NCBI GenBank assembly: GCA_036272255.1 | Contig: DATAZC010000034.1 | Location: forward strand, 716-64,715 | DNA from: Acidobacteriaceae bacterium | GTDB taxonomy: Bacteria > Acidobacteriota > Terriglobia > Terriglobales > Acidobacteriaceae | Reading direction: 5' to 3' | DNA: 64,000 bases | Shown: positions 884 through 33,715 of the stretch, piece by piece | Layout: each line of letters starts with the position of its first letter | Numbering within the stretch: the stretch's first letter is position 1 | Position numbers and translations under genes: made by a program | The notes under the pieces: generated by a model | Told to the model about the DNA's origin: nothing | The model's input: only the letters and a program-made list of their open reading frames with translations | Databases searched by the model: none

Positions 884-898
884 GCTAGCGGAGATCGG

Positions 899-4465: not shown

Positions 4466-4479
4466 TTGAAAGCTTTCAA
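4466..4479. promoter_or_regulatory. Perfect 14-bp palindrome TTGAAAGCTTTCAA, candidate LacI-family operator
   Basis: The sequence is self-complementary. It lies in the divergent intergenic region between the FGE-fusion/LacI operon and the receptor gene, about 60 nt upstream of the ATG at 4538. A near-identical site occurs at 37644-37657. Confidence 0.4.
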
Positions 4480-4537
4480 GCCGTATTTCGCAATTGCTCA
4501 GGCGGGAGCGGCAGCAGGAAAAGGGAGACCACTGGCC

Positions 4538-12007: not shown

Positions 12008-12169
12008 ACGCGGCCGCACTTTGATTCGCGGACAACCCTGTGGTCATCGATCACGGGATCTTGTTGGTCGGACTGGAACACAACGGGATCCAGCTTTTAC
12101 GCAACGTCCTCTTTGGAGACCATGCGAGCGAAGCGCAGGGCAATCCGCGGCAAAAAGGCTCTGGAAACT

Positions 12170-12385
12170 TTACCCCCGCAAATGACTCTCCCCGTCGGAA
12201 GGCTGGGGTCGGGCGGCGATGCAGGCAGGGATGCTCACACAGGATGAGCTCCGGCGTTTGCGCCGAAGATAAATTTCAATGCCGACGAGAAACGCAATCA
12301 CGGCCAGAGCCACTATGCAGAAGAATTCCAGGGAGCCGTCGCCGTTGTCCGGAGAGAAACCAAAAATCCGCTCGATAAAATCCAT
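12170..12385 (-). CDS. Small (71 aa) single-pass membrane protein, unknown function
   Basis: ATG at 12385 is preceded by GGGAGGG. The sequence is MDFIERIFGFSPDNGDGSLEFFCIVALAVIAFLVGIEIYLRRKRR: a short N-terminal motif, one TM helix and a basic tail. It is divergent from the giant operon. The 241-aa ORF-track version is rejected. Confidence 0.5.
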   Translation of the reverse strand: MDFIERIFGFSPDNGDGSLEFFCIVALAVIAFLVGIEIYLRRKRRSSSCVSIPACIAARPQPSDGESHLRG

Positions 12386-12454
12386 GCGCCCTCCCGTGCA
12401 TGCTGCATAATACCCGGCCCCGCTGTTTCTGGAAAAAAGATTCTCTGTTTTTTG

Positions 12455-12484
12455 TTGACTGAGGTCGCGATGCCAGTGTAGAAA
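12455..12484 (+). promoter_or_regulatory. Possible promoter for the six-gene operon
   Basis: TTGACT (12455-12460), an 18-nt spacer, then TAGAAA (12479-12484), about 110 nt upstream of the gene A start. This is a by-eye match only. Confidence 0.2.
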
Positions 12485-12592
12485 TTCAAACTCTGTTTCG
12501 TTCCAGGTTTTCGACGCTCTCCCCGCTCTCATGCTGCGGCGCCGATAGACTCCCCTCTCGCCCGAAGTTTTACAAGACGGTAGGCAGGCTCC

Positions 12593-13243
12593 ATGAGCAC
12601 ACTCGGGTTCGTTGTGCTGATCTGTCTGTTCGTTCTGGTGCTGGGCATCTGCATCGGATTGCTGCTCGCGCTGTGGTGGAGGCGCAGGCATCCATCCCCT
12701 TTGCCGCCTCCACCGCCTCCACCGCCGTGTCCGCCAACCTACAAGATTCCCGATCAGCTCGGCGAGACCGATCTCACCACGCAAATCAGCGTGCGTCTCA
12801 TGGGCACAACGGCCAACGGAGTTCCACTGGCCGCCGGCACTGCTGCACCCACCAGCGTTATCTGGGTTGACCACGGCAATGAAGTCCTTGTGCATCTGGA
12901 CTCGACCGCGGTGCGCATTCTCGATCGCATGGTGTTGGTATCGGTCGATCTGGAGACCGACCAGACCGGCCGCACTCCGTTGATTTGCAGCTTCGCAGTC
13001 AGTGGCGCCGGCGAACTCGGTGGTCTCGCGGCGACCACCGACGAATTACCGCGCGGACTTGGATCACTCGCCTCGGCATGGGGCGCTCAGTTACAAACGG
13101 CGGTCTGGTCCACCCTGATGGGACTGGTGAATGATCACGCCTCGGAACGGAGCCTGACCCCGCGTGCACTCTCGGCCAGCGCCGGAACCCTCAGCCTGAA
13201 CGCAGGAGCTGCGCTCACCACAAGCCCGGGAGGCGCGGTATGA
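12593..13243 (+). CDS. Operon gene A: N-terminally membrane-anchored protein with polyproline linker, unknown function
   Basis: TM helix LGFVVLICLFVLVLGICIGLLLALWW, then RRRH, then PSPLPPPPPPPPCPP, then a ~160-aa globular part. Its stop overlaps the gene B start (ATGA, 13240-13243). Confidence 0.75.
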   Translation: MSTLGFVVLICLFVLVLGICIGLLLALWWRRRHPSPLPPPPPPPPCPPTYKIPDQLGETDLTTQISVRLMGTTANGVPLAAGTAAPTSVIWVDHGNEVLVHLDSTAVRILDRMVLVSVDLETDQTGRTPLICSFAVSGAGELGGLAATTDELPRGLGSLASAWGAQLQTAVWSTLMGLVNDHASERSLTPRALSASAGTLSLNAGAALTTSPGGAV

Positions 13244-16200
13244 GCGACGGCCTCGGTAACGAAGTTCTCGATCTGGGCAAGGCGATCGGCCTGTTCGACG
13301 ACAGCGGTAATCTCCAGCCGCATTGGTTCGAGAATCCTCTGGGCAACATCGAAAGCATCTTCACGACGGATACACAGCGAGCCGCGTTTCTACGCGTGCT
13401 CGACGCACTGCTTGCGCCGGTCCAGTTGCCTGATCTTCCCGCGAATGAAACCTGGCATCCGTTGTTCGGAGATCAGACACGCGGCAATGCCTATCTCACC
13501 GTCAACACCACCAACGGAGTCACCTTCGGCTTTGCCGGCGAATTCCACTCCAGCGATGGTCCGCCGCCGCTCGCATCACTCACAGCCCATCTGCCTCTGA
13601 TCAGCGTAAACGGCGGCAACGTGACTGCAGTGGCTGGCACAGCGAATGGCCCGCTCGATGTCAGCCTCCGCCTGCATCTCGGATTTACTTTCCCGGCCGA
13701 CCCCATCGGTCTCGATTCGGTGATCGTCACCGCCAGCCTGACCCCGCTGGGAGGCAGTACACCGGCAACTCTAACGGTCGATCTTGAAGGGCTGCAACTG
13801 GACGCTACCGGCCCGAAGAACATCACCCTGGATCCATCGAACATGGGTTCGGAGTCGGTCCACCTGATCATCGGCTTTATTCAGGAGCAGCTCACACGTC
13901 TCGCAGCAAACTCGGGTGAAGCCGGAGCCGTGACCGCACACCTGCTGCAGTTACTCGGTTTCGGCGACACCACGATTCCGCAGTTCCCGTTCACGCAGCT
14001 TGGAAACCCATCCGCCATTAACACCTGGTTCGCCTCACTCCTGCAGGGAGGAGCGTCGGCTCCGGTCGTGCATTGGCTGGGCCATCTCGCCGGTCTGATC
14101 GGCGTGAGCACTCCGACCGTAACCGGGTCGGGCACTCCAGCCGATCCATGGGTTGCGCCGGTGTTGCCGATCGGTACTGCGGCAGGCTCGGGCCTGAACA
14201 TTACTTTCGCCACCACAACCGTCTCGTCCACAACCTCGCTGCTCATCGGCCTGCAGGCTCGCGTCATTCCCGGGGGAGCGAACCCGCCGGTGCGCATTGA
14301 AGGCAACGCGATCATTGCCTCGATCCCGATCACCGGCACCGGGTCCGCTGCGGTATTGCCATCCGCCTCCGTTACCGCGATTGCTCCCGGAGCTGTCGGT
14401 GCGGGAGCGCTGGTCAGCAATGCGACGATCTCCGTCGAGTCCGTGCGCGCCGGATTTAACTGGACTGGCTCCGCACTGCAGCCGCTGCTCGAGCTGGATA
14501 CAGTCACTCTCACCCTTCTCGGCGCCACCAACAGCTACGACAAAATCGACCTGACCAATGCCGACAGCGTCGCCAGCGATGTCTCCACGGCTATTGGAAA
14601 TACGATTCGCGGATATTTCGGCACCACGGGTCCAGGCAGCGATCTGGCGGCGTTAGCCGGTATCATTCCGCCGGGGAACGATCCAGCGTCGCCGCATACG
14701 GTGCGGCTGCCGCAGTTCCTTGCCAACCCTTCCCAGGAAATCGGAGCGGTCCATCGCGCCGTCCTCCTCGACAATGCCCATCCCTGGTCGCACATGCTGG
14801 AGGAGATCGGCGGCCTGGTCGGGATCACTACGGCGGTCACCGGATCCGGAACGCGCACCGATCCATGGGTTCTTGAACTCGCTCCGCCTTCCACTTTTCA
14901 CATCGAGATCGCCGCGTGGAACGACCAGACCAGCGGCGTGGCCACCGACCCTCAGAAACTTCGCATCGGACTGCGCGCGTCCTTCGAGCAGGCTCCCGTC
15001 GACGTGTACTGGCTGGCTGAGCTGCTCGCCATCGATCTGCCGCAGTCCGGTTCGGGAACCATCTCGCTCATGGCTGGGCAGCACGCCCACGTCGGTGTCC
15101 AGCCCATCCCCACGATTCCGTCCGTTGGCGGCCTATCGCTCAGCATCGCGGACTTCGCCGCGGACATGACGTTTACGCCGGGCACTCCGTTGGCATGGAG
15201 TGCAGGTCTTCAGAACGTCTCCCTCACTTACGCGGGAAACACCATTAACGTTCCGTCGATTGGCTTCCCGCTCACGGCGCCGTTCGATGTTACGAATCCA
15301 GCCGCTATTGCCGCCGACTTTGGACTGACGATTCCAAATCTGGAGTTGCTGCTTCGCCTCATCCTGGCGCGAGCGCTGTCTTCGTGGGGCGGCATGCCGG
15401 CGTTCACACTCGCCGGACTCCTTGGAGTGCACGGCGGTCTCGACGGACTTTCTGCCGACTGGCCCGCGCTTGCCGATCCCGGAGCTGCCGGCTCGCTCCT
15501 GAGCGATCCATTCACAGCGCTGCGCAACTGGCTTGCGTCGGTGGCCACCGGGGTTTCCGCCGACGGCCAGGCTTTTCTGCCGCAGATCCTTCCATGGCTG
15601 CGCGGGCTTCTTGCTGACGCGCTGCCGGCTGCTCCGGGCAACCCACTCGACGGCTTCAGCCTGCCCATCAGCGGCTCCGGAACCTACGATGATCCGTGGG
15701 CACTCCCACTCACGACAACCGCTTCGACCAACGTCGATGCACTTGTGTGGCTGGAGCCTGCCGGTCCGCCGCCCGCCTGGGCTACGCCGCTGATCGCAGC
15801 AGCGGCCGGAGCGGCGAATTTCTCAACCCTGTTCCAGGTTGCGCAAAGTATCGCGCCCTTCGTGCCTGCGCTGAGCAACAATCTCTTCGGCAACGATCCG
15901 GGTCTGCTCGCCGATGCGCTGAACTCGCTGTCTTCTCTTTTCACCACTGGAGACGGTGTCGTTCCGCTGGCCTCACAAGTGCCCACCAGCACCAACTGGA
16001 CTGCCGGCACTACGCTCTCGAGCGCGCATCCCGCACAACCATCGGATCCGGCTGCCATCACGCAAATTCTTACTCAGGTCGACACTCTTGCCGGAGGCGC
16101 GGGTGGAGCCCGCACCGTTTTGCTGCTCGGTCCGGCATTCAGCGACCACACCATCTGGACGACGCTGCTGGCCGATCCCAACGTCCACGGCACAACGGCC

Positions 16201-19200
16201 GCCGCCACCAACTTCAACCTGCGTGTTCCCGGCCTCGATCCCTCCGCCGTTGACCTCACCACGGTCACCGCCCAGGCGTCCTGGTACAGCGCCGATCTCG
16301 GCGACGACGGAACCGGCAACCTCACATCGCTCACCGCACAAATCGCCCGGCTCGTCGCGCGCGTGCAACAGCTCAACGGAACCGGGCCGGTCACCCTGGT
16401 TGCTCACTCAACGGCCGGTGTCGCCGCTCTCGCCTTCACTGCCGCTAATCCGACCCTGGTGCAGGGCCTCATCACACTGGGCACGCCTCATCTTGGCGCA
16501 TCGCTGCCGTTTCTTTCCGACAGCCGTGTGGGCGACGCACTGCGCGTCCTTCAGATCCTGCGCCCGCAGATTGCCGGGAGTCCACTCCGCGATGCTCTCG
16601 ATTTCCTGCTGCTGGCACTGGATGGCTATCAACCCGCTGCCGCTGGAACGTTGCCTGTCGCATCGGCATTGCCGGCTGGATCGTTCCCCGCGCCCATCAC
16701 CGCGCCGGCCAGTATCGACTCGGGCGGACGCCCCGTCCTCGCCATCGGTAGCCAACTCGGCAGCCGTCTGCTCGACGCGCTGAAGCCCGCACTGTCGGCT
16801 CTCGCGAATACTGCTGCTAATCCCACAACCGCGCCGGCCGCCCCAACGCATCTTGCTTTCGGCGCGCGCGCGCACATGAACCTTGCCACATCAGCTGCGG
16901 GCAACGTCGCCGTAGACACAACCATGCGCGGCGATCTCTTCCAGTTCCCGCTGCACAGCGGAGCCGCAGCCCCGCCTCATCCCGCCCACGGCCTCTACGT
17001 GCGTGCGAAGCTCACCAATCCGAACGGCTGGCTGGTGGGCGCGTCGAGTTCGTTTGCCGGAACGGGCCTGCCGCCCGTCGATGTGCGCGTGCGCTGGGCT
17101 GAGATTGGCGCCGATATCACCACCTCAACCGGGGGACTGAAAGTCAACCCGGTCGTGAATTTGCACCAGGTTTCGTGGCACGGTCCGGTCGTCGATTCGG
17201 CTTCGTTCACCGATGCCAACGCCCAGGCTCTGCTGGGCGCAGTGCTGCAGACCATCAGCTCGCCGCTTCCCGCGTCCACGTCGCCGGCTGGCATTCTGCT
17301 GTCCACACTCCAAGCCCTCAATGTCGCGGTGGTCGATAGCCACGGTGGCATCGGTATCTCTGCGGACGCCTTCAGCGCCATCACCGCCGACGCAGCCGGA
17401 TATCTGTCGACACAACTCTCCTCCGCTCTGAACTCCGCAACGAGCTTTGCAGGATTCACCGCAACCACTGTGGTCATCCCCAGCCGCGGCGTCACCGCAA
17501 CGCCGGAATGGACGATGCCCATCAGCGGGCTGCCGCTGGAAATCTACCTGCTGCCGAATCCGTGGACTATCGGCCTGCGCACGAAATCAACCGGCAGCGG
17601 CCCGGCCAGCTGGACGATCGCACCCGACACCACCCTCACGATCGATGCGAGCGTCGTGATCCCCGCATTCACTCCCAGCCTCGACGCGACCTTTACCCTC
17701 GGCGCATTTTCGTTAGGCTGGTCCAGCACGAACTCGCAGCTCACAGTGAGCGCGCAACCCTGGCTGGCACCGCTTACGCTCATCCCGGCGCCCAGTGCAT
17801 CTGCGCTTGAAGCGGCGCTGAGCAATGCTCTCCCGCGCCTGCTTTTCTCCGGCGCCGCCTCCGCGGTTCTGGAGGCGCTGGCCGGTCCAGGTCTCAAGGT
17901 TGGCCCCATCGACACGTTCTTTACGTCCATGTCGTCGGTGCTCACCGAAGCTACCGCGCTTGGCAACAGCGCCGGCACCGGACTCGATTCCACCAAAATT
18001 ACCAAGCTCCTGCAGTTCATCGGCAACATCGCTGGATTGCCGGCGGGGCCGGGCCTCACGTTGCCTGGCAATCTACAACTCACAGCTACAGGCGCAGGAA
18101 CAAGCGCCGATCCGGTGAAGGTGCAACTGGCCACCACCGCGACCATCGGTGGAGTTCTCGATTTGAGCGGTGGTGTGTCGTTCGACCAACTAACGCACCC
18201 CAGCCCTACCGGCTCTCTGGCTCTCACCATTCCGCCATCGCCTGCGACGCTGCCAGGACCGTGGCAACAAGTCATCGTTGCTTTCGGCGTCAGCTCGGCC
18301 GGCGTTACTTTATCCATCACACCCGTCACCACGCCCACCCCGACACCGGCGATTCAGCTATTGCCCACCTTCAGCGGACTTGGAGCGCTCGCGGCGGGCG
18401 CTGAAGCGTTGTTGCTGCAGGCGCTCAACGCGCTCGTCGCGGCGATCGGTCCGTCGACGGTAATGGACCTGACGCTGGATGTTGCAACGGCCCTGGGCAT
18501 CTACGACAACGTCAATCACTTCAGCACGCATGGCGACGAACTCAAGGCGATGCTGACCGGAAGCTGGCTCAGCGGCTTTACCGCCGCGCAGCGTGGCAGC
18601 ATCGCCACCGCCATCGCCGGCCTCTTCAGCGGCGGCTCGCCGCTGGCAGGAACTCTGCCCGGCACCGTTTCGGCGGGCGCAGGGCCCAACGCCGGAGTCG
18701 TGACCTGGTCTCTTCCGCTCACCGGCGGCGACAGCGGCACCATCAACGTTGCGCTCGGTTGGGATGCGAGCGGTCCGACGGCTACCGTGGGCCTCGCCGA
18801 CGTTAAACTCGCCGACGGTGCGCTCGGCATCACGGCCTCCGGCGGCTATGTCGCTGGTTCTGTGGCTGTCACCGCAGCGTTGGGCGTTCATCTTGAAAGC
18901 GCCATTGGCATCCCTCTCGTTCCCACTCTTTCGCTCATCGAAAGCGGTGGCAACTTCCAGCTCGAGCTCTACCCACTGGCCAGCGGATCGGGAACCACGT
19001 TCACCACCGGCCCCATCACCATCGACTTCATTCCGCCGGCGCTGCATATGGCTGCGAGCGGTCCGGTCGCGCTGATCGAACAGTTCCTGGTGCCGCTGGT
19101 CGGCAATACTCTGCTCTCCACTACGGCGATCAAGAACGCCTTCGCCACCACGCTCTGGACTGGCGGCCCCACCGTGCAGTCGGTGCTCACCGGCGCGCAG

Positions 19201-22200
19201 ATTGCCGTCCCCAGCGGTGGCAGCCTGGTCATCAATCCCACATTCCCCAGCATCACCGCCGTGGTCACCGGCTTGCTCAGCACGCTTGCGACCGGAGTGA
19301 AACTGCCGCTGACGAGCACGCTGAATCTTTCCCTCGTCAACACCGCCAATCGTCTCGGTGTGCGCATTGCCGGCAGCCAGGATTTTCCCATTGGCGACTA
19401 CGACCTCAGCATGCTGTTTGGCGCGCCGGTTGCGTGGGGAACCGGCTTCGATTCCGGCGTGACGGTTTATCTGTTCGACGTTGCCGGTGGCAACTTCACC
19501 TTCAATCCTGGAATTCTCGCCGTCGGCCTGGGGCTTGGCCTTACCGGCCAGAACGATGCTCCGTTAGTGAACACCAACGGATTCCGCATCGGTGGCGTTC
19601 GCCTCTACACCTTCTTCTGGGGCGCATTCTCGGGCGGCTTCAGTCTGAGCGGGCTGGGCGTCGGCGCCGAGATCGATGCGCTGGGCTTGCCGCTTTCTCA
19701 GGCCACCGGACCCAATGTGGGTGGCAATAATCCCGTTGCGTCGAGCCTGCTCGGTGGTGGTGGCGATGGCGGCAACCGAGGCGGCGACACGCAACCTCCC
19801 AATCCCGCGGTCGATGTCGCGGCCTGGTACTGGACTGCACCGACTGACTCCAACCAGCCCACTCCGCCGGCCGGAGACAGCACCTTCCATATTCTCTTTT
19901 CCGGCAACGACCAGCCGATCTGGATTGGCGTCCACGCCCAACTCGGCCCCATCTACCTCGACCAGATCGGCATTATCCTCAACGGCAACACGTCAGCATC
20001 GCTGGTCCTCGACGCCACGGTGAAGGTTGGTCCATTGACCGGCCAGGTCGACGAGCTCGGCGTGACCATCCCCTTCAAGTCCCTCATGCATCCAGGCGAC
20101 TGGACACTCGATCTGAAAGGTCTCGCCCTCAGCTTCTCCACGCCAGGCATCACCATCGCGGGAGCGCTGCTGAAGAACGACAGCGGCGGTACGGTCGAGT
20201 ACGACGGTATGCTGCTGATCCAGATCACCGAGTTCGGTCTGGTCGCGGTTGGCGCTTACTCAAAACCCACAGACGCAGAGGGCGATTACACCAGCGTCTT
20301 CATCTTCGCTGGCCTCTTCATCATCATCGGCATTCCGCCGGTGATTGAAGTCGACGCTATCGGCGTCGGCTTCGGTTATAACCGCGAACTCATCGTGCCG
20401 GACGACATCAACCAGATTCCCAGCTTCATTCTGGTCGCGGCTCTCGACGATGGCGGCGCGCTCGCCAACGACCCCATGGGCGAGCTGATGCAGATCCGGG
20501 ACAGCATCCCGGCCAAACGCGGCAGCCTGTGGTTCGCCGTGGGTCTGCACGGCACGACGTTCGTCATCGTGCACGTCACAGCGATCGTCTATGTTGCGCT
20601 CGATCGCGGCGTCGAGATCGGCCTGCTCGGCGTGGCCCGCATGGCCATTCCTTCCGACGACACAGCTTTGGTCAGCGTGGAGCTGGCCCTCAAAGCGCGG
20701 TATTCCTCGGCCGATGGCACGCTTTCTATCCAGGCCCAGCTCACTTCCAACTCCTACATCTTCGATAAAGACTGCCAGCTCACCGGCGGCTTCGCCTACT
20801 TCATGTGGTTCCCGCAGGGCCAGTTCGTTCTGACCCTCGGCGGCTACAACCCGCACTTCATCAAGCCCACGCAGTTTCCCGACGTTCCGCGGCTTGGGTT
20901 CAACTGGGGCCTGCCCGTCGGCGCCACCATCAAAGGCGAAAACTACTTCGCGCTGACCAACACCTGCATCATGGCCGGCGGCCGTCTCGAAGTGACGTAC
21001 GGCATTTCGTGCGCCTACGTTTGGTTCACTGCGTATGCCGACTTTCTTATCTCGTGGGATCCGTTCTATTACGAGATCGACATCGGCGTTTCCGTCGGGG
21101 CTACGTTCTCGATCCAGGCTTGCTTCTGGGGATTCTGCGTCGGCGTCAGCGTCACGGTCTCACTCGGTGCCACGCTCACCATCGAAGGGCCGCCACTGCA
21201 CGGTACCGCCACCGTCGACCTCGCCATATGCAGCGTAACGGTGGCCTTTGGTTCTGACGCGAATCCGCAGCCGCCCTACATCACGGACTTCAATGTCTTC
21301 GCAACGAAATATTTGTTCGGCAACGATCCCAATGGCAACGCGTTCCGCGTGGACGTCCTCACCGGTCTGGTGCCGCCATCGCCGTCAGGTGCGGCTCCGG
21401 CTCCCGGCACTTCCGATAAACCCTGGCAGATGGTGAGCGAATTCTCCTTCCAGTGCGACACCAAAATGCCGGCCACCATCACCAACGACTTCGTCTTCGG
21501 CGATCAGGACCAGAGCGGCAACGTGCACTCCATCGATCTTGCTCCCATGAACAAGGAGACGGTGGGCACCAAAATGGTGGTGACGCTGTTCGGGCTCGAT
21601 GGCAATAACTGGACGGCGATCAGCGTTCAGAGCCCGAATTCCAATGCGGATTTCCAGATCGACACGCTGCACTGGATCATGACGCCGATTGTCGGCAAGG
21701 TTTCAGAAGCCACATGGCACTGGAACGATCCATCCAACATGCCGGCCGCTGCAAATACTGTTCCCGCAGTGGTGGGCCTCACGATCCAGGGATTCTGCTT
21801 CTTCGAAGGCAAGTCGGCTCTCATTCCCATTGCGAAGCTCTACGACACAGGCGATAGCCGCCCTCTGCCCTTCGCCACCGATTTCACGCTCACCTACGCT
21901 CAATACCAGGCGTACGGCGCATCGGCAGTGCAGCTGGCCGAACTCACCGCCGCTGCCGGATCGAACAGCACACTGCTGATCGCGAGCGCCATCACCACCG
22001 GCGCAAGCGGCTTCTTCGCCGATCAACGCAGCACTGCGGGACTGCCGGTGGGTGGCAACTCGCCGGTAGCCAATCTGGCACTACTCACCGATCGCTCAGC
22101 GCCACCCCTGGTCGTTCCAATCACGACGGGTCTGACCATGAAGCCCCCGGCCTTGCCTGCACCGCCGGTCATCGTTCGCCCACCGGTCATCCTGCCAGTC

Positions 22201-25232: not shown

Positions 25233-25235
25233 CCA

Positions 25236-26294
25236 ATGCGCACCCCGTGGATCCAATCCAGCACCGCTCTCAAAGAACGCCTTCTGCGTCCCATCCAGCT
25301 TGATACCACCGAGCCCGAGTCGGAGATGCCTCCTTATATGGAGCTCTTTCTTTCTCATCTCCGCCTGTTGGTCGGCATCCCCTTCGATTACCTTGTCCCT
25401 GATGATCGCCTGCTCCCCGACGAGTCCATTCGCTTCTTTTACATCGACCGCTCGTGGACCGATCGCCTGGTCGACGGAGCAATCGCCGTGGGCAAAATCG
25501 GCACTCGCGAACAGGCGCATCACCAGGGCCACGCGCCTGCCGTCAACCAGCAGGTCGATCTCAGCGAGCGCATCGTGCGCACCATTCAGCGCGGCCTCCA
25601 ATCCTTTACCGACGCCAAGTCCGCCAACGATTCGAACACCGCGCCCGCCGATACCATCACCGGATTCCTGCTTCGCTCCTCCGCCGTCAGCGGATGGCCC
25701 CATATGGACGTGCGCGCCTACAAGACGGATGTCGCCGAGCCCTTCGATCCTGCCGATCCGAAAGCGCAGTCTCAACAACTCACGACACTGCGCCTCGAAC
25801 TTCTTTCTCCAGGTTTGATGATTGCGCTTTTCCAGGGCGTTCCTCAGCTTGTCATCCTTGAAGAACCGCACAACGGCGTGATGTTCGGTCTGCATGTCGA
25901 CAACGGAGTAGACAAAATCTATCTGCGCGACAACACCGGGCACCAGATTCCGATTCCTCCGGTCCCCTCACCACCCGCTGATCCCAACTACTATGACATT
26001 GAGCTTCCATTTCGTTCCACCAACAGCCGTGTCGTGCACGTGACCGAATTGCGCCGCCGTCTGAATCAGGCCATCGCGGCGCATCCGACACAGGTCAACG
26101 TCACCGGCTCCGCCAGCTTTGCCATTGCGGTCCTCGATCCCCCATGGCGCCAGCGCTTCGAGGGCACGGTCGACGAAGCCGGCACGCAGAACACCTCCGG
26201 CGGTTTCGTCGCCAACCTGCAAATTGCGCAGCGCGTCTCCGAAAATTCAACCTTCGACGAGGTTAGAAATCTGGTGACCACCTATGGCCATTAA
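25236..26294 (+). CDS. Operon gene D: 352-aa protein, unknown function
   Basis: It starts 3 nt after the gene C stop and its end overlaps gene E by 11 nt. I recognised no motif. Confidence 0.8.
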   Translation: MRTPWIQSSTALKERLLRPIQLDTTEPESEMPPYMELFLSHLRLLVGIPFDYLVPDDRLLPDESIRFFYIDRSWTDRLVDGAIAVGKIGTREQAHHQGHAPAVNQQVDLSERIVRTIQRGLQSFTDAKSANDSNTAPADTITGFLLRSSAVSGWPHMDVRAYKTDVAEPFDPADPKAQSQQLTTLRLELLSPGLMIALFQGVPQLVILEEPHNGVMFGLHVDNGVDKIYLRDNTGHQIPIPPVPSPPADPNYYDIELPFRSTNSRVVHVTELRRRLNQAIAAHPTQVNVTGSASFAIAVLDPPWRQRFEGTVDEAGTQNTSGGFVANLQIAQRVSENSTFDEVRNLVTTYGH

Positions 26295-29200
26295 CACCAG
26301 ACTTTCCTTCACTGACCAGGCAGCCGCCTTCTCGATCGCGTCCGCCTATCGCATCACGCCGAAAGTCATCGGAACGTGGAATCCTTATCTCATCCGCACC
26401 CCGCGCTTGCTGGTACCCATGCAGGTCGACGCGTTGGTCGTTCGTCCGAATGAGCCCACGCAAAGCTGGGCCGACTGCGCGCTCAAACCCGACCCGCAGC
26501 AGACCACGCCGGTCACACGATACGACATCTTGCCCACGCCCTTTGCTGAACTCAAGCAGGCGCGCACAGCTGGAGCTTATCTCCACTGGTCGCTTCCGGA
26601 TGCGCTTACCCATGGCTATGCCGATGCAACGGGGGACACGACAACCTTCCCGGCCGCACCCGATCGCTGGCTCATCCTGCGCACGTATCCATCGCCCACG
26701 ATCTTCCGCGCCGCGGCGGGCACCGTCGGCCTGCGCGGTCTCAAAGGCTGGGTTCTCCGCGCCGGCGACCAGAATCCCGTTCCCATCGATCTGGATTCGT
26801 TCACTGAGGGTCCGCCCTCACAGGACGCGATCAACAATCCGCTCACCGTTCTCGGCACGGGGGACGTAGCCTGGGCCGCGTACTACGACAACTGCGTCAA
26901 CCGTCTGGCGTTCTACGACAGTCTCAGCGATATCTCGGAAGGGCCGGTCAGTTATTTGGTGTGCGGCTGGTACTCCAATCCGGCTCAGGATCCACTGGGC
27001 GACCAGCAGGTGCACTCGCTTACCGACTTCAACAACAAGATGGAGGAATATCAGTGGCAACTCGCGCAGGGTGAGCTCGACGAATCCATCGAGCACGCGC
27101 GCAACTATGTCATCGCCGCCCGCGGCCTCGGACTTGAGACGAATCTCTTCGCTCCGTCCCTTGCCTACAACGACGCACTCAACTCAGCCGCGCCCAAGGT
27201 CGGCTTCGCTGTTTCCGACACGCCTTCCTCGATGCCGCAGTTCAGTGGCACCGGCGAGGCGCTCGGTCCCTACACCACAGATGGATCGTGGTGGCCCAAC
27301 GCCATCCTTGTGCACGGCTGCGTTGTGGCCATTGGCTGGCCCACCGTCGGCTGGCCTGGCAACGAAACTGGTCTCCTCTCCGGCGAGACCGGCGGTCCGC
27401 CGGCGGCATCGGCGATCAACGTCGCAGTGGGGAATACGCTCACGGAGGCGCTCGCCGCGCTGGTCGCGAAACAAAATAATCTGCCCAACGAAGCGCGCAT
27501 CCTCGAAGGTTTTCTCCTCAGCTCTCTGGCAGACCTTGAGCAGCCCGATGGTCGCGCGCGTCTCGATGCGCTCCTGCAGGCTACCGCATTCGGATCGCTC
27601 GACGGCGGGTCCACGACCGAGACCATCAACATCCCCGCCATGCCGGACACGCCGCCGCCGCTGCCCAAGCCGGTGCAGCCCGGCCCCGGCGTCTTCGCCG
27701 GATCGGTGGCAGCAACCAACGCGCAGCAGACGGCATTCGCCAGCGGAAAATTCGTCGAGAACACCGTCAAGCTCGGCGGCACTGCCGCGGCAAAATTCTC
27801 TGAGTCTCTGGAAACCGTGCGCGAGACCACGTTCCTGAACGGCGGACTATCGTCGGTGATCAACGCCGTCCACACTGCGCCTGCGACTCCGCAAATCCCC
27901 GCTCACACCGCTCAAGTGAATCGCGCCCTGCCTCGCCTTTTCTACCCCAGCGAGCCGGTGTTTCTGCTGGAAGGCGCCAGCCGCACCTTTAAATACGGTG
28001 CAGACAATCGCCTCTCTCAGGACGACACGCTGGTGTGCCGCCTCTCCGGTTTTTACGCTGAAGCCGTCAGCGCCAATCTTTCTTCATCCACCGGAGCGCA
28101 AGCGCTCGTCTATCGTCCCACCTCCACTGCCGATCCGATTCTCGAACGCAGCGTTGAGAACGGCAGCGTTCCGCCGGAGTGCGAAGACTTGCTGCGCGAA
28201 CTCATCGTTCTGGATCCATCGGCCGCGGTGAATCTCGCTCAGGCGGCCCTGACACCGGTCAGCCCCTTCCGCATTGCAGCGACTACGACCAATGCCGGTC
28301 CTGCAGCTCCCGTCGCGCCGCCGCCCGCCGCAACCGCCCCTACCACCGCCCAGATCAACGCCGTCGCGAAGAACATTGTCGTCGAGCAAACTGCGTGGTG
28401 GGCCACGCGCGATCCTCGCTTCGACCACGGCCCTCTGGTCGCCAACAGCGGCATCGTCGGTACGTTGCCGTCACCGATTGCCGTTACACCGCCGGTCCAG
28501 CCCTGGAATCCCATTCACCTCGACTGGCAGATCGAGTACATCCCGTCAACCAACGGCGTGGCGGACTGGACCCTTGGCGAAATTGATTACTCCAGCGATC
28601 CCACCATCGCGCCTCCGGCACCGGATCCCACGCAGCAAACGGGCGCGAACGGACAGTCCACGCAGCAACCGCCCGGCAGTCTGACTCTTTCCGGACGCGC
28701 TCATCTCACCGGCGGTGCGGCCGCAACAGCCGCAGCCAGCTTGCGCATTGCTATGACCCAGGCCCAGGCGGCGGGCGGCGCCGGTTCACTCGCGCCCAAT
28801 ACCACTGCGGCGTTTCACTCCGTCTACGCGCAGCTTGCACTCGGCTCCTACGCAAAGATGGCCGAGAACATCAAGGTCCGCATCACTCCGGCGGCTGGGG
28901 CGACAAACACCGTTCCAGCCGTCGATCGCAGCGCGCTTCAGGACATTCTCGACACGCTCGACAGTATGGACGTCCTTGCTGGAGCGGCCGACAACTTCAC
29001 CCGGCAGATGCGTGGAGGCTATCTCCCCGACGGTAAGTCGGCGCCTGCGGACCACTCGATTCCCACCCCGTTTATCCCGCTTCGTGCCGGCTTCATCCGC
29101 ATCCTGCGCCTTCGACTGGTCGACAGCTACGGGCAATTTCTCGATCTGGTCGGCTCCAGCGACACCGCGATCATCGACTCTACCCAACTCATCGAATCCG

Positions 29201-30390
29201 AGTCCCTGCAGACTCCCGGCCGCCCCGAGTTGCTCGCTTTGCCGCCGCGCTACACATCGCCCGCCCGCCTGTGGTTCCGCTACATGGCGGCAGATGGTTC
29301 CGAAAACGAAGCCAATGCGACCACATCGCCGGTTTGCGGATTTCTGATGCCGAATCACCTTGATGGGGATCTGGAGTTTTTCGATGATGCTGGCGGAAAT
29401 CTCGGTTTCGTCCGCCCCGACCCACAGGCAGGGATCGTTTGGGAAGATGCGCCGGGCATTCCATCGACCGTCGGCCAGTCACCGGCGCGCGCCGTCCCCA
29501 ATCCATATGCGGCAGGCGTCGCCGAAGGCCTGTTGCAATGGGGCCTGGCCGACGCCACCAACACCGGCCTTCCCGAGGATGCCCTCAGCGCCATGCTCCG
29601 CATCATCGACTCAACGCTGTGGACCGTTGATCCGTTCGCCAGCTCAACCGATGAGCATCTGTCTTTGCTCGTCGGCCATCCGGTCGTCATTTTGCGCGCA
29701 AGGGTCAAGCTCGAAGTCCAGGAGCCGATCGACACCTCGGTGATCAACACCAAACCGGTTTCGCTTCGACTCGGAGCACTGCCTCAATGGCAGGATGGCC
29801 TCCTCGGTTATTTCGTCAACGACGATTACACCCGCCTCTATTGTGCCGATGCCGCCATTGCCGGTTTCGCCCGCCAGGTAGGCCCCGGGCGCGGCTTCCT
29901 GCAACAGGCCAATCTCGTTCCCGACTACTACCAGACCTTCTCCGATGACATCGGCGATACCGTGACCGAAGGCAACAGTCCGGTCACTCACCCTTATGTC
30001 GACGCGGGCTTGATGACGATCCAGCCGAACCAGGAAGTTTCTCTTACTCTGCTCGTCGAACCACACTGCGTGGTCCATGCAACCTCAGGCATACTGCCGC
30101 GCAAAGAAATCGGGATGCGCCGGGAATGGGTCGCCGCTGCACTGGCCGCGCTGTCGCCTACATTTCGCTTTGGCCCGGTACTGGTCGACCCAAAGACGCT
30201 GCGCATGCCGGTGCCCAATGAGATTCACGGCACCTGGAGCTGGGATCATCGCGCCGACATTACTACGTGGGCCGAGGACCCCATCGTGGCGGCGACGCAG
30301 GACGCTCATCTTCGTCCCGACCCGGCCAGCGGCACTGAGGGCTGGATGCGAATGATGCCGCCACCGCCCCCCGGCAATTCGAAGTCCTGA
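26284..30390 (+). CDS. Operon gene E: 1368-aa protein, unknown function
   Basis: A long GC3-rich ORF overlapping gene D. Three Pro/Ala/Thr/Gln low-complexity linkers lie near 27630-27700, 28282-28353 and 28603-28680. There is no signal peptide and no credible catalytic motif. Confidence 0.8.
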   Translation: MAINTRLSFTDQAAAFSIASAYRITPKVIGTWNPYLIRTPRLLVPMQVDALVVRPNEPTQSWADCALKPDPQQTTPVTRYDILPTPFAELKQARTAGAYLHWSLPDALTHGYADATGDTTTFPAAPDRWLILRTYPSPTIFRAAAGTVGLRGLKGWVLRAGDQNPVPIDLDSFTEGPPSQDAINNPLTVLGTGDVAWAAYYDNCVNRLAFYDSLSDISEGPVSYLVCGWYSNPAQDPLGDQQVHSLTDFNNKMEEYQWQLAQGELDESIEHARNYVIAARGLGLETNLFAPSLAYNDALNSAAPKVGFAVSDTPSSMPQFSGTGEALGPYTTDGSWWPNAILVHGCVVAIGWPTVGWPGNETGLLSGETGGPPAASAINVAVGNTLTEALAALVAKQNNLPNEARILEGFLLSSLADLEQPDGRARLDALLQATAFGSLDGGSTTETINIPAMPDTPPPLPKPVQPGPGVFAGSVAATNAQQTAFASGKFVENTVKLGGTAAAKFSESLETVRETTFLNGGLSSVINAVHTAPATPQIPAHTAQVNRALPRLFYPSEPVFLLEGASRTFKYGADNRLSQDDTLVCRLSGFYAEAVSANLSSSTGAQALVYRPTSTADPILERSVENGSVPPECEDLLRELIVLDPSAAVNLAQAALTPVSPFRIAATTTNAGPAAPVAPPPAATAPTTAQINAVAKNIVVEQTAWWATRDPRFDHGPLVANSGIVGTLPSPIAVTPPVQPWNPIHLDWQIEYIPSTNGVADWTLGEIDYSSDPTIAPPAPDPTQQTGANGQSTQQPPGSLTLSGRAHLTGGAAATAAASLRIAMTQAQAAGGAGSLAPNTTAAFHSVYAQLALGSYAKMAENIKVRITPAAGATNTVPAVDRSALQDILDTLDSMDVLAGAADNFTRQMRGGYLPDGKSAPADHSIPTPFIPLRAGFIRILRLRLVDSYGQFLDLVGSSDTAIIDSTQLIESESLQTPGRPELLALPPRYTSPARLWFRYMAADGSENEANATTSPVCGFLMPNHLDGDLEFFDDAGGNLGFVRPDPQAGIVWEDAPGIPSTVGQSPARAVPNPYAAGVAEGLLQWGLADATNTGLPEDALSAMLRIIDSTLWTVDPFASSTDEHLSLLVGHPVVILRARVKLEVQEPIDTSVINTKPVSLRLGALPQWQDGLLGYFVNDDYTRLYCADAAIAGFARQVGPGRGFLQQANLVPDYYQTFSDDIGDTVTEGNSPVTHPYVDAGLMTIQPNQEVSLTLLVEPHCVVHATSGILPRKEIGMRREWVAAALAALSPTFRFGPVLVDPKTLRMPVPNEIHGTWSWDHRADITTWAEDPIVAATQDAHLRPDPASGTEGWMRMMPPPPPGNSKS

Positions 30391-30481
30391 GTTTTGCGCG
30401 TGGTTGTCTCCGCACGATCAGAAGGGTGGGGCTTTCGCCCCGAAGGAAACACCGGATTCAACGAAGCTGAGGAGCTGAACG

Positions 30482-33400
30482 ATGGCCGACCCAATCAGAA
30501 AAATCGATCCTTCCGACGTGGGCGAGAGCGGTCCGGCCTTCCTCCTCGACCACTCCGATCCCGCCGGCGTTCCACGACCCGATGTCTGGCGGCAAGCCGT
30601 CGCCGATTTCTACCAGCTCGATCTCGATGCCAGTGTGCTCTGGTCGCAGATCGGCCCCGCTCCTCTGATCGTTAACGGCGACCAGATCTTCATGGGCATC
30701 GGTCCCGACTCCGGCGAAGTGACCGATATTCTCGTCGATCCCTCCGGCGCCAGCGATCAGACCCTCTACATCACCACCGACGATGGCGGAATCTGGAAAA
30801 CGGCCGATGGCGGGTCTAACTGGAGTCCACTCACGGATCAGATGTTCTCCATCTCGATGGGAGCCGTTGCGATGGATCCGGGCAACAACAAGATTCTCTA
30901 TGGTGGGAGCGGCAATCTCTTTGATGGGGGGTCCGCTTTCACCAAGGGCGCGGGGATCTACCGTTCTGCCGATGCCGGCCTGACCTGGAGCATCGTAGAC
31001 GGCGGCTACTTCGGCAGCATCTTCGCCAACGTGGGCATCATTCGAATCGTCTGTCCCGTGCCCGACTGTTTGTTGGTCGCCACCAGCAGCGGGCTTTATC
31101 GTTCCATTGACGCAGGTCGCAACTTTGGCGCCAATGCGCCTACCTTCGACGACCGCCAACCGGTCGTGCCTGGTAAAATCTGCTGCCTGCTGCTCGATTC
31201 AGCCACTCCAGCCAGCACCGTTTACTGCGGCGTCGCCGGGACTTCCACCGATGCCAACGGAAATGCCCTTCCTAACGTTGGCCTTCTCAAGTCTACGAAC
31301 GCCGGCATTACTTTTCCCACCAACCTGTTCAGCGACCCAACCGCGCCTCAACTTCCCTATGGCTCCTTCGTCATCGCGCAGTCCTCGTTCGATCGCGCCA
31401 CCGCGAACAGCACCGTTATCTATGCCAGCGTGCAAACCACCCTCGCGAACGGCACGCCCTCGTATGTCGGCCTGTTTCGTTCCAGCAACTCCGGATCCAC
31501 CTGGACGCAACTGAACAACCTGTCCGCGGTCGCCTCAAAAAACGTACCTGGCGACACCAACAACGCCGGCTTTACCCAAACTAACTACGACCTGACGCTG
31601 GGCGTCGATCCTGTCAATTCCCAACGTGTCTATGCCGGCTTCCAGCAGCTTTGGTTGTCAGCAGATGGTGGAACGACGTTCCAACCGGCATCCATCACCG
31701 CCTCGAAGGTTCACTGGGACAATCATGTTCTCGTCTTTAGTCCCGCGACGCATCGGCCCACACCCCCCGCCGCTCCCGCTCTTATCCCGCCTACCATCCT
31801 GTACACGGGAACCGATGGCGGCATCGCGACCAGCAACGACGGCGGCAAATCCTGGAACCCCATCAACACTGGCATCGCCAGCAATCTTTTTCGCGGTATC
31901 GATATCGGCAGAGGCGGTACCGATAACGGCAAAGGTGTGCCCAATCAGTTCACTTTCGGTGGCTGCCAGGATACCGGCACGATGGGCCATCGCCCCACGG
32001 ATATCGCCGGACAGTGGCATGCCGGCATCAACGGAGATGGCTGGCTGGTGGCCGTCGACCCCACCGATCCCACGATTGTCTATGGCTTTGACGATCAGTA
32101 CTTCATCAAGTCCACCGACGCAGGCGCCACCTGGGCGGCCACCTATAACAGCCCGCTCACTATCGGAAAAGGGCTCTCCAATCCCCAGGCCAGTTTTGCG
32201 CGCGCTGTCGCTCTCGACCAGACTGGCGCTAATGCTGCCGCGCGAACCGTGTATGTGAGCGAGATCAGCGCCCTCTTCAAGAGCACGGACTCGGGCGTGA
32301 ACTTCACCGCCACTCCTCTTGCTCCGGCAGGGTTCATTACCTGCATCGTGACCACCGTTGCAGCTGCCGGACTGGTCTGGGTCGGCGCTTTCGATGGTTC
32401 TGTCCACTGCTCAGCCGATAGCGGCGTTACCTGGGATGCGGCGCCCCTGAACACTACGCCCGGCGGGGCGGGCATCCCGATGGGGCCCGTCAATTCCATT
32501 GCGGTTGATCCCACCAACGCGCAACGTATCGCTGTCGTCTACGGCGGAGTGTCCGCCATCAACGCCAAATACAGAACCCGCCACGTCTTTCTCTCCATCG
32601 ACAACGGCGCCAACTGGACCGACGTGAGCGGAACCGACGGCAACGGTCCCGTTGGAAATCTACCCGATTTGCCGTTGCGCTCCGTCGTGTTCGACACCAG
32701 CGCTACTCCTGCCGCCATCGTTGTAGCCGGCGACGCCGGCGTTCTTCGTTCTGCCGACGCCACCATCACGGGGACGGGCTCGACCGCTGTCGGTACAGCT
32801 ACATGGAAGATTTACGGTGCCGGCCTTCCCATGGTCTGCTGCAACTCCCTGGCGATCGACAACTCCGTCTCGCCGCCCGTTCTGCGCGTAGGGACTTATG
32901 GACGAAGCTGCTACGAGGTCACCCGCCCCACCGGCGGCCCCAGCTTTGCATCGGACAACAACCTGGCCTTTGGCGTGGCCGCCACAGGCCAGTCCGTCAC
33001 CCTGCCGTTCTACGTGTACAACTGCGGAAACGCGTCACTGGACATTTCCGCCAGCAGTGTCGTTGGCCCTGGCCCCTTCACTTTCGGCGCGACACCAGCC
33101 TTTCCTGTCTCGGTTGCACCGGGCGCAACCCAGGCCTTCCAGATTACCTGGGCGCCAACGGCAACGGGCGACGACTTCGTGCTTCTGCAGTTAACCACCA
33201 ACGATCCAACGCAAGCCACGAGCACCATTCCTGCGAGCGGAACCGGTGTGAACACCGGGCTCGTTCAGCGCCTCGCTACCAACCCCATCGCAAGCGTTGG
33301 CTTTGGCACCGTCACGACCGGAGCGAACCGAACCATCACCGTACAGCTCTTCAACGTGGGCACCGCGGCTCTGAACATCGCATCGATCACTTTATCCAAC

Positions 33401-33643
33401 GGCAGCGCCGACTTCTCGCTGAATCCCGCGCCTGCATTTCCAATTGCGATACCACCTGGCGGCGAATCCGATATCACCGTGCAGTTTGCCCCCTCGGGCA
33501 GCGGCGCGCTCACCGCCGAGTTCACCATCGCCAGCGACGACCCACACTCGCCGCTCAAACTCACCGCGTCGGGGACAGGTTTTCAGGCCGCCTCTGGCTT
33601 CTGGACCCAGTTCCTCACGATGCTCGGACTCGCGCATCCGTAG
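30482..33643 (+). CDS. Operon gene F: BNR/Asp-box beta-propeller protein with two C-terminal Ig-like (choice-of-anchor-D/ASH-like) domains, no signal peptide
   Basis: GAGGAG lies 8 nt upstream. At least 11 Asp-box motifs (S-x-D-x-G-x-[TS]-[WF]) are present: TADGGSNWSP, SADAGLTWSI, SIDAGRNF, STNAGITF, SSNSGSTWTQ, SADGGTTFQP, SNDGGKSWNP, STDAGATWAA, STDSGVNFTA, SADSGVTWDA, SIDNGANWTD. Two ~100-aa repeats lie at 32959-33580 (FG.....G......V.N.G.A.L.I.S). Confidence 0.85.
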   Translation: MADPIRKIDPSDVGESGPAFLLDHSDPAGVPRPDVWRQAVADFYQLDLDASVLWSQIGPAPLIVNGDQIFMGIGPDSGEVTDILVDPSGASDQTLYITTDDGGIWKTADGGSNWSPLTDQMFSISMGAVAMDPGNNKILYGGSGNLFDGGSAFTKGAGIYRSADAGLTWSIVDGGYFGSIFANVGIIRIVCPVPDCLLVATSSGLYRSIDAGRNFGANAPTFDDRQPVVPGKICCLLLDSATPASTVYCGVAGTSTDANGNALPNVGLLKSTNAGITFPTNLFSDPTAPQLPYGSFVIAQSSFDRATANSTVIYASVQTTLANGTPSYVGLFRSSNSGSTWTQLNNLSAVASKNVPGDTNNAGFTQTNYDLTLGVDPVNSQRVYAGFQQLWLSADGGTTFQPASITASKVHWDNHVLVFSPATHRPTPPAAPALIPPTILYTGTDGGIATSNDGGKSWNPINTGIASNLFRGIDIGRGGTDNGKGVPNQFTFGGCQDTGTMGHRPTDIAGQWHAGINGDGWLVAVDPTDPTIVYGFDDQYFIKSTDAGATWAATYNSPLTIGKGLSNPQASFARAVALDQTGANAAARTVYVSEISALFKSTDSGVNFTATPLAPAGFITCIVTTVAAAGLVWVGAFDGSVHCSADSGVTWDAAPLNTTPGGAGIPMGPVNSIAVDPTNAQRIAVVYGGVSAINAKYRTRHVFLSIDNGANWTDVSGTDGNGPVGNLPDLPLRSVVFDTSATPAAIVVAGDAGVLRSADATITGTGSTAVGTATWKIYGAGLPMVCCNSLAIDNSVSPPVLRVGTYGRSCYEVTRPTGGPSFASDNNLAFGVAATGQSVTLPFYVYNCGNASLDISASSVVGPGPFTFGATPAFPVSVAPGATQAFQITWAPTATGDDFVLLQLTTNDPTQATSTIPASGTGVNTGLVQRLATNPIASVGFGTVTTGANRTITVQLFNVGTAALNIASITLSNGSADFSLNPAPAFPIAIPPGGESDITVQFAPSGSGALTAEFTIASDDPHSPLKLTASGTGFQAASGFWTQFLTMLGLAHP

Positions 33644-33715
33644 TCGGAAGCGGTTGGCTAAACAAGTAGAACGTTCCAGATGGAATTAATGTCCGCGCGG
33701 TCTTAGGCCCGGCCA

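Follow-up and report, generated by a model that had tools for sequence, protein, structure and literature searches.

A widespread multi-protein cassette built around a DUF6603 protein, a candidate membrane-acting system of Acidobacteriaceae and other bacteria

We analyzed a block of six genes, here called A to F, in a 64,000-nt stretch of contig DATAZC010000034.1 from an Acidobacteriaceae bacterium (assembly GCA_036272255.1, positions 716 to 64,715), referred to below as the window. The block is best explained as one copy of a multi-protein system that is conserved and has spread horizontally. An initial annotation of the window had proposed an undescribed multi-protein system at this place, and the proposal is supported by the lack of any match to a characterized system and by strict synteny of the genes across phyla. 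It had also offered two hypotheses of function, a membrane-tethered complex acting on lipids or the envelope and a toxin-like assembly released by a non-classical route. These are still the two leading readings, and the evidence presented here sharpens both. The reading we favor, at a probability of about one in three, is that the proteins would be built into a complex in the cytoplasm, leave the cell by a non-classical route, bind a target, and attack its membrane, as a toxin-complex-like weapon of soil bacteria. A role on the producer's own membrane appears nearly as likely.

The description of the block as an orphan operon was wrong, as its genes have thousands of relatives and a cassette of B, C, D, and E is widespread. 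The D family gives 1,120 database matches, and an exhaustive search for it returned 2,881 cluster representatives (50% identity, E <= 1e-3). We performed a synteny scan using one genome per species, which returned 59 loci. Homologs of B, C, D, and E stand in the same order and on the same strand in ~55 of the 59 loci, across at least six phyla, and are thus strictly syntenic when compared between phyla as the annotation had suggested; taken singly, C is syntenic in 54/59 loci and E in 58/59. The carriers include Acidobacteriota (Acidobacteriaceae, Terracidiphilus, Bryobacterales, and Vicinamibacterales), Actinomycetota (Streptomyces, Cellulomonas, Kribbella, Nocardioides, Actinotalea, and others), and Pseudomonadota (Variovorax, Aquabacterium, and Rhizomicrobium), as well as Chloroflexota, Ca. 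Dormibacterota, Binatia, and one metagenome-assembled genome (MAG) labeled "Deltaproteobacteria." D is the most conserved component, with 50-58% identity between phyla, and E shows 40-50%. Two loci hold what look like rearranged or remnant cassettes. In a Mycobacterium sp. MAG (L050), D and E are split by ~2.4 kb of other open reading frames (ORFs) and B and C are not upstream, and an uncultured member of the Alphaproteobacteria (L054) has no B and only part of C. Two further loci, L084 and L085, have a fragmented appearance and were left out of use.

Compact versions of the cassette were also found. In that of Paenibacillus polymyxa p-YT9A, the DUF6603 protein measures 908 aa, the C-D fusion 714 aa, and the E-like protein 1,050 aa. 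The three proteins measure 1,092, 743, and 1,213 aa in Streptomyces sp. NBC_01426; on pSCL4 of S. clavuligerus they measure 1,413, 807, and 1,199 aa and are joined by a PLAT-domain protein. A compact metagenome locus encodes 951, 839, and 1,370 aa, after which come Kelch and PQQ propellers. Archangium carries a compact set with permuted gene order; in Archangium primigenium the order is E, Collar, DUF6603, C-D, the second gene encoding a 677-aa phage tail-collar protein (PF07484; L064:7578-9611) between the E-like and DUF6603 genes. At another compact locus (L065:6634-9173), a MoxR/ClpB-like AAA+ ATPase, a 255-aa alpha/beta-hydrolase, and three small ORFs lie ahead of the DUF6603 gene. The compact versions have neither the lipase-like domain of B nor A nor G, a small membrane protein gene described below. 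As the DUF6603 domain is all that they share with B, only this part of B is indispensable.

Gene fusions tie the remaining core proteins together. Fusions of C with D are numerous, those of D with E include P0156 and P0231, and P0185 joins all three. This is strong "Rosetta-stone" evidence, placing C, D, and E in one complex, and the fusions indicate that the DUF6603 protein with C, D, and E probably forms a single physical complex, the invariant core of the system. The unit of six genes proposed initially is redrawn in part. The core comprises the DUF6603 protein, C, D, and E, to which are added a swappable propeller and, in the giant-B subfamily, one or two small single-pass membrane proteins, A and G. 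C and D of the window share one reading frame, and TAA-CCA alone stands between C and the ATG of D (25230-25238). Fusion or fission at this site is a one-codon event, and many lineages encode a single C-D protein.

Next, we examined whether the block belongs to its surroundings. Genes outside the cassette differ even in relatives whose D is 94% identical, and in other genomes the cassette is not associated with the polysaccharide-use genes that flank it in the window. Plasmids of Streptomyces, Embleya, Kitasatospora, and Paenibacillus carry more distant copies, and one Embleya record has three matching places. From the unshared flanks and the distant plasmid copies, we conclude that the unit is mobile over evolutionary time, though well ameliorated in this genome. 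Synonymous codon use in the block correlates with that of the flanking genes at r = 0.965, in line with the codon likeness noted initially. The view of the block as a resident locus thus holds for its ameliorated codon use but not for its genomic context, which differs between near relatives. A cassette 82-85% identical to the Acidobacteriaceae copies occurs in a MAG labeled Ca. Dormibacterota (L011, DASXNH010000177.1; also L033), and is either a very recent transfer or a binning error.

The proteins A, C, D, and E had been described as unassignable to any family, and our scans agree, as none of the four matched Pfam, NCBIfam, PADLOC, or PHROGs. Searching Pfam with homologs one by one (93 of D, 31 of C, and 30 of E) gave nothing consistent. 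The PDB returned no match by sequence for B, C, D, E, or F, nor by profile for C, D, or E; a weak prohibitin match of C (E = 0.26) was dismissed as noise. When the profiles of C, D, and E were compared with one another, no common domain emerged, and the three proteins have no transmembrane (TM) segments. AlphaFold2 modeled D with a predicted local distance difference test score (pLDDT) of 87.9 and a predicted TM-score (pTM) of 0.77. Foldseek placed the best PDB neighbor of this model at E = 0.26 and a TM-score of 0.1, with no match in BFVD, and D appears to adopt an undescribed fold. The annotation saw no credible Walker ATPase, and this stands: the single match to [AG]xxxxGK[ST], GYLPDGKS at residue 912 of E, was rejected because its lysine is not conserved among homologs. 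One E homolog has a TIG domain. One cluster representative of the D family (P0213, 560 aa) fuses the N-terminal half of D to EF-hand and FG-GAP (integrin-type propeller) repeats, which hints at calcium dependence and at a direct contact between D and the propeller.

Large, structural-looking proteins that spread horizontally and have no export signals could belong to a domesticated phage or mobile-element module that forms a tail-like or capsid-like particle, and the tail-collar domain protein inside the Archangium locus would fit such an origin. However, the core proteins had no matches in PHROGs, and searches of 50,697 GenBank phage records and of 2.9 million IMG/VR contigs found no member of the D family, results by which we rejected a phage association. 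The lack of a BFVD match points the same way, and the window cassette contains no sheath, tube, capsid, portal, terminase, or integrase gene. We therefore consider this explanation largely refuted and highly improbable. The earlier statement that no secretion-system or phage gene is present also held, as profile searches found none among the cassette proteins.

B is a giant protein with very few charged residues and no signal peptide. It aligns with homologs from Streptomyces, Cellulomonas, Variovorax, Aquabacterium, Rhizomicrobium, and others as a single collinear high-scoring segment pair over residues ~540-3380 (~2,700 residues) at 36-52% identity. A BLAST of B against itself found no internal repeats, and a "GSGT..DPW" motif spotted by eye was not substantiated as a repeat. 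The two recognizable parts of B named in the initial annotation, a lipase-like core and a DUF6603-like block, were both confirmed.

The first is an alpha/beta-hydrolase at residues ~1012-1161. Its nucleophile elbow reads A-H-S1057-T-A-G (small-x-Ser-x-small), and a GTPHLG motif follows at 1081-1086. Residues H1056, S1057, G1060, G1081, P1083, H1084, and G1086 are invariant in 41 B sequences. The candidate catalytic histidine H1204 is kept in 39/41, and the candidate aspartates D1160 (34/41) and D1128 (35/41) are both short of invariant. A profile built from 28 homologs matched the Burkholderia and Chromobacterium lipases 1QGE, 1TAH, and 1CVL in the PDB at E = 5.5e-9, in an alignment that spans the elbow and the GTPH motif and sets the elbow of B against GHSQGG of 1QGE. 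A PGAP1-like match (E <= 0.01) was seen in 27/28 homologs, and B of the window itself is below the Pfam cut-offs (Abhydrolase_1 20.7-25.0 bits vs 25.8; PGAP1 17-20.7 vs 24.3). We conclude that this domain is probably a serine lipase or esterase. It resembles the family I.2 lipases in aligning to the three structures over the elbow and GTPH(R/L)G and in its invariant Ser1057. Unlike them, it sits inside a 3390-aa protein, has the elbow A-H-S-T-A in place of G-H-S-x-G, has a triad Asp that is not securely identified, and is absent from the compact versions. Secretion-system lipase effectors offer a functional analogy only.

The second part matches PF20248 (DUF6603) at 422.8 bits against a cut-off of 27 (E = 2e-126). 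Homologs of B match it as well, and in the conservation profile this region is the most conserved part of the protein. The AlphaFold2 model of residues 2020-2760 (pLDDT 79.7) consists of nearly nothing but long antiparallel beta-strands. Its best Foldseek neighbors are SlpA, LptD, the PapC/FimD ushers, and ApoB100 (E = 4e-5 to 1e-3, TM-score ~0.2). The model, a meander of long beta-hairpins, is like these proteins and the beta-belt of ApoB100 in fold class and not in family. It also differs from outer-membrane barrels in that B has no signal peptide, that DUF6603 occurs in monoderms (Streptomyces and Paenibacillus), and that there is no sequence similarity and a TM-score of only ~0.2. A DUF6603 profile found no match in the PDB. 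In the searchable literature we found no mention of DUF6603 (PF20248, IPR046538) and nothing relevant on giant genes in Acidobacteria. The family is catalogued with no assigned function, and no family library includes its obligate partners C, D, and E. RefSeq labels the compact homologs "DUF6603 domain-containing protein" and the partner genes "hypothetical protein."

F had been described as a BNR propeller with Ig-like domains, and Pfam and NCBIfam confirmed a BNR/Sortilin propeller followed by such domains (ASH 69.8 bits vs 27; Sortilin-Vps10 45.9 vs 33; BNR 30.7 vs 27; choice_anch_D 68.6 vs 45). An NCBIfam equivalog for a GH74-like / F510_1955 glycoside hydrolase scored 90.5 bits, below its cut-off of 175, and the predicted resemblance is one of shared propeller type only. 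A beta-propeller gene follows E in most loci, and its family varies. The Sortilin/BNR type is found in the window, Streptomyces, Variovorax, and Aquabacterium, and Kelch, PQQ, or PD40 propellers are found in other loci, along with one fucose-lectin-like match below the Pfam cut-off.

As the annotation had stated, there is no cleavable signal peptide in B through F, and A alone has an N-terminal TM helix. Inspecting N-termini by eye, we found a signal peptide in none of 15 propeller proteins encoded directly after E (F included), in monoderm and diderm hosts alike. A sixteenth N-terminus, that of a detached Kelch gene in Archangium, has a lipoprotein-type signal. The NCBIfam and Pfam scans recognized no C-terminal sorting motif in F, which therefore differs from the usual choice-of-anchor proteins in having neither a signal peptide nor a sorting signal. 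F contains 12 cysteines, and those conserved among 18 homologs are C787 and C810 (17/18 and 18/18; window ~32840-32911). These two may form a disulfide, which would faintly suggest an oxidizing, extracytoplasmic location.

The proteins fall into two compositional classes. In the window, the residues E, K, and R make up 5.3% of B and 4.7% of F, compared with 10-14% of C, D, and E; in all phyla checked, the ranges are 5-11% and 10-17%, respectively. This scarcity of charge in B and F could point to an extracytoplasmic destination or follow simply from their all-beta folds. Taken as a sign of destination, the two classes would suit an export or surface-assembly system in which B and F are the cargo and C, D, and E, with A and G, are a new apparatus. 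The surface-type domains of F, the two conserved membrane proteins alongside the cassette, and the resemblance of the DUF6603 fold to translocating barrels (ushers and LptD) would agree with this. However, the cassette encodes no ATPase, polytopic membrane channel, or energy source; C, D, and E have no TM segments; one and the same apparatus would have to serve monoderm and diderm envelopes; and A and G are absent from the compact versions. We regard such a system as unlikely.

Proteins without export signals could also act within the cell that makes them. In an anti-phage or other intracellular conflict system, the propeller and Ig-like domains would sense an invader, and DUF6603 and the lipase-like domain would disrupt the host membrane in the manner of abortive infection. 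Membrane-disrupting effectors and repeat-domain sensors are common in defense systems, and this general likeness speaks for such a role, as does an accessory, mobile, and sometimes multi-copy occurrence. A TIR-domain gene near one locus (L084, 2120-3394) would also fit. However, PADLOC-DB v2 gave 0 matches to defense-system models for all six proteins, and the cassette has no NTPase, nuclease, or other typical signaling module. Neither the window nor the inspected loci are defense islands, and at ~21 kb and ~7,000 codons the block is far above known defense systems in size. Furthermore, its very strong conservation is not the rapid turnover typical of defense genes. We consider this role quite unlikely.

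The protein encoded by A was initially called a membrane anchor, and we did find an N-terminal TM helix, followed by RRRH, a poly-proline linker, and a conserved ~165-aa domain. A lies directly upstream of B in 17/17 close metagenome loci and in Occallatibacter riparius, and its ATGA overlap with B couples the translation of the two genes. The A family has 343 matches and occurs throughout the Acidobacteriaceae clade sampled; 108/113 full-length members keep the N-terminal TM helix, which in the homologs inspected leads into basic residues and a Pro-rich linker. By the positive-inside rule, the C-terminal domain of A is predicted to be cytoplasmic. Its size and single TM helix brought a class-III holin to mind. 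We did not adopt this candidate, as the charges predict the opposite topology and no endolysin is present.

Additionally, we identified a short gene, G, that is divergent from A and encodes a protein with a single TM helix between an acidic N-terminal motif, MDFIERIFGFSPDNGDGSLE, and a tail of RRKRR. A sigma-70-like site lies ~20 nt upstream of its ATG, and the DNA at ~12309-12416 is 75-84% conserved in several related loci. A hidden Markov model (HMM) of 14 homologs located G at 17 other loci (E = 6e-14 to 5e-24), only at cassette edges. G is divergently upstream of A in 6 close-relative loci, representing 4 independent populations, and in 11 others (8 Actinomycetota, Variovorax, and 2 other Acidobacteriota) no more than ~150 nt separate it from the stop codon of the F-like gene. 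Examples are L036:19961-20131, L045:19937-20104, L037:18224-18406, and L039:17850-17716. The homologs have the consensus [DE][FW]IE.[LIV]F..PD.G.G..E, a TM helix, and a basic tail. G is single-copy in the window and is the sole element common to the regions upstream of A in independent loci. We looked for it near the O. riparius cassette, where it is absent, and G is thus not universal. From its conservation, we take G to be a seventh companion gene of the cassette, one that the initial annotation did not list. Its conserved, acidic N-terminus is predicted to face the outside of the cell. A 241-aa minus-strand ORF (12170-12895) that overlaps A was rejected as a spurious extension of the frame of G into A.

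The coordinates of these genes and domains are collected in Table 1. Those of the six same-strand ORFs, together with their lengths, were all as originally described. So were the junctions, with ATGA overlaps at 13240-13243 (A/B) and 23409-23412 (B/C), a 3-nt gap between C and D, an 11-nt overlap of D and E, and a 91-nt gap between E and F. The purine-rich boxes GGGAGG, AGGAG, and GAGGAG said to precede B, C, and F are present, but their spacing to the ATG is 6-7 nt and not the 8 nt given. Comparison with close relatives gave ratios of nonsynonymous to synonymous substitution rates (dN/dS) of 0.05 for B (2,726 codons), 0.04-0.07 for B to F, and 0.11-0.13 for A. All six genes are real and under strong purifying selection. 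The block is ~4 points higher in GC than its flanks. This excess lies mostly at codon position 2 and therefore reflects amino-acid composition; the proteins are rich in Ala, Pro, Thr, and Gly and poor in Glu and Lys. GC skew is -0.10 to -0.17 across the cassette (window 14000-34000) and near zero in the flanks.

Table 1. Genes, domains, and sites of the cassette region in the window.
Feature	Coordinates	Strand	Basis
A (216 aa)	12593..13243	+	ORF call
B (3390 aa)	13240..23412	+	ORF call
C (607 aa)	23409..25232	+	ORF call
D (352 aa)	25236..26294	+	ORF call
E (1368 aa)	26284..30390	+	ORF call
F (1053 aa)	30482..33643	+	ORF call
G (71 aa, predicted single-pass membrane protein)	12170..12385	-	Translation and HMM of homologs
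Sigma-70-like promoter match TTTCCA-17-TATTAT	12407..12435	-	Consensus match only
Lipase-like alpha/beta-hydrolase core of B, residues ~1012-1204	16273..16851	+	Profile match, conserved motifs
DUF6603 domain of B, residues 2231-2691	19930..21312	+	Pfam PF20248
Two ASH / choice-of-anchor-D Ig-like domains of F, residues ~825-1031	32954..33574	+	Pfam, NCBIfam

The flanks were claimed to be ordinary sugar-catabolic modules, and they do have the look of typical Acidobacteriaceae carbohydrate- and polysaccharide-use modules. They include two CarboxypepD_reg/OMP beta-barrel (TonB-dependent-like) receptors at 4466-7813 and 37683-41339, the glycoside hydrolases GH127 and GH2, a LacI regulator, and an FGE-sulfatase-domain protein. 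An Rfam scan of the whole 64-kb window gave 0 matches. Promoter and terminator scans were uninformative except for the promoter-like site of G and a hairpin 3' of the upstream gene. This terminator-like hairpin (12037-12057; 9-bp stem, T-rich tail) comes directly after the GH127 gene and parts it from the cassette region.

The complex could be retained through A at the producer's own cytoplasmic membrane and handle the cell's own lipids, for example in membrane remodeling or repair, lipid extraction or transfer, or the formation of lipid particles. DUF6603 would then provide a surface like the ApoB belt, and the lipase-like domain would serve as an acyl hydrolase or transferase. We consider such a role possible, if tentative. 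It is consistent with the absence of any export signal in B to F, with the coupling of A to B and the TM helix and basic residues that predict a cytoplasmic domain in A homologs, and with ApoB100 being among the top structural neighbors of DUF6603. Very strong purifying selection, high conservation across phyla, and codon use that matches the host also fit, and the cytoplasmic membrane is all that the monoderm and diderm carriers share. However, the cassette has a patchy, accessory distribution, occurs on plasmids and sometimes in several copies, and sits in variable contexts. The BNR, choice-of-anchor D, FG-GAP, and TIG domains are typical of surface or extracellular proteins, the swapping of non-homologous propellers is hard to square with a housekeeping role in lipids, and the acidic N-terminus of G is predicted to be outside.

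We then compared the cassette with known machines. Searches of Pfam, NCBIfam, PADLOC, PHROGs, and the PDB, and Foldseek searches of the PDB and BFVD, placed its proteins in no characterized system, an outcome that the proposal in the initial annotation required, and the cassette lies far from every known system with which it was compared. Tc (ABC) toxin complexes, known from Photorhabdus, Yersinia, and Paenibacillus, are megadalton, multi-subunit assemblies whose few genes are very large, adjacent to one another, and lack signal-peptide sequences. Both Gram-negative and Gram-positive bacteria carry them, in many cases on plasmids or islands; they have propeller and Ig-like or sialidase-like binding modules and act on membranes. 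The cassette is like them in its large adjacent genes without signal peptides, its propeller and Ig-like modules, its plasmid copies, and its range of Gram-negative and Gram-positive hosts, and its complex would also resemble them in megadalton scale and in acting on membranes. Unlike them, it has no VRP1, TcdA/TcdB pore, TcA-TcB binding domain, RHS repeats, or SpvB (Pfam and NCBIfam, E <= 0.01), neither an RHS cocoon nor a hypervariable toxin tip, and no Tc counterpart of C, D, and E. It cannot be filed as a member of the Tc family.

Contractile injection systems, tailocins, and type VI secretion systems invite a similar comparison. They too have no signal peptides and are horizontally transferred, and assembly in the cytoplasm, as we infer it for the cassette, would be a further likeness. 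In contrast to these systems, the cassette has no sheath, tube, baseplate (gp25/gp6-like), or spike (gp27/VgrG) families and no viral occurrence, and the modeled fold of D is unrelated to any viral model in BFVD.

In the released, membrane-attacking complex that we favor, the proteins would come together in the cytoplasm, with A positioning them at the inner membrane face in Acidobacteriaceae, and would exit by lysis, in vesicles, or by some other non-classical route. The propeller and Ig-like domains of F would recognize a ligand on the surface of the target cell, as their domain types and the repeated replacement by non-homologous propellers suggest. The amphipathic beta-sheet predicted for DUF6603 would bind the target membrane or enter it, and target lipids would, in the giant form, be degraded by the lipase-like serine hydrolase of B. 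C, D, and E would provide a structural scaffold or adaptor. G might, speculatively, be a protective (immunity-like) or docking membrane protein.

Several lines of evidence argue for this reading. The accessory domains seen across the loci (BNR/Sortilin, choice-of-anchor D, Kelch, PQQ, PD40, FG-GAP, EF-hand, TIG, and one weak lectin-like match) are normally of extracytoplasmic or surface types. Receptor-binding modules of weapons are likewise swapped for non-homologous ones. A plasmid-borne, sometimes multi-copy, accessory distribution, flanks that vary among near relatives, and occurrence in both monoderms and diderms also speak for it, as do the lack of export signals and the low charge of B and F relative to C, D, and E. 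The parts predicted to be directed at membranes or lipids, namely the lipase-like core, the DUF6603 sheet, the PLAT protein, A, and G, support action on a membrane.

Other observations weigh against release and attack. We found no release, lysis, or secretion genes in the window or the inspected loci, and the predicted cytoplasmic domain of A fits retention at the producer membrane equally well. B is collinear and strongly conserved, with no hypervariable or polymorphic toxin region, and purifying selection on the cassette is as strong as in housekeeping genes. Since the compact versions have no lipase domain, lipolysis is not the core activity. The weak Foldseek likeness of the DUF6603 model (TM-score ~0.2) may reflect generic long beta-hairpins only, and the low charge of B and F may be a mere effect of all-beta folds. 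The conservation of C787 and C810 alone is weak evidence for an oxidizing location. Furthermore, all of the functional readings are drawn from sequences and predicted models.

More broadly, the cassette could represent an unrecognized class of machine, a self-contained, mobile, membrane-targeting system on the scale of Tc and contractile injection systems, built from entirely different proteins (the DUF6603 protein, three new families with a new fold in one or more of them, a swappable propeller as "receptor," and small membrane companions) and carried by thousands of soil and freshwater bacteria in at least seven phyla. We would put this at a little short of an even chance. About 20 kb of strongly conserved coding sequence common to several phyla is a large investment for a cell, and for all of it, current annotation and literature offer one DUF number. 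If the cassette does encode a machine that attacks or handles membranes, it would add a new class to the few large bacterial weapons and envelope systems. It would also assign a role to four sizeable "dark" families of proteins, including one whose confident fold prediction has no known relative. Cultured and sequenced carriers are at hand, including Occallatibacter riparius, Variovorax dokdonensis, Kribbella koreensis, Cellulomonas sp. McL0617, Streptomyces clavuligerus, and Paenibacillus polymyxa YT9, and the compact three-gene plasmid versions are of a size that allows cloning, which makes the question experimentally tractable. Such a machine may partly explain how abundant yet little-understood soil phyla such as the Acidobacteriota compete or survive.

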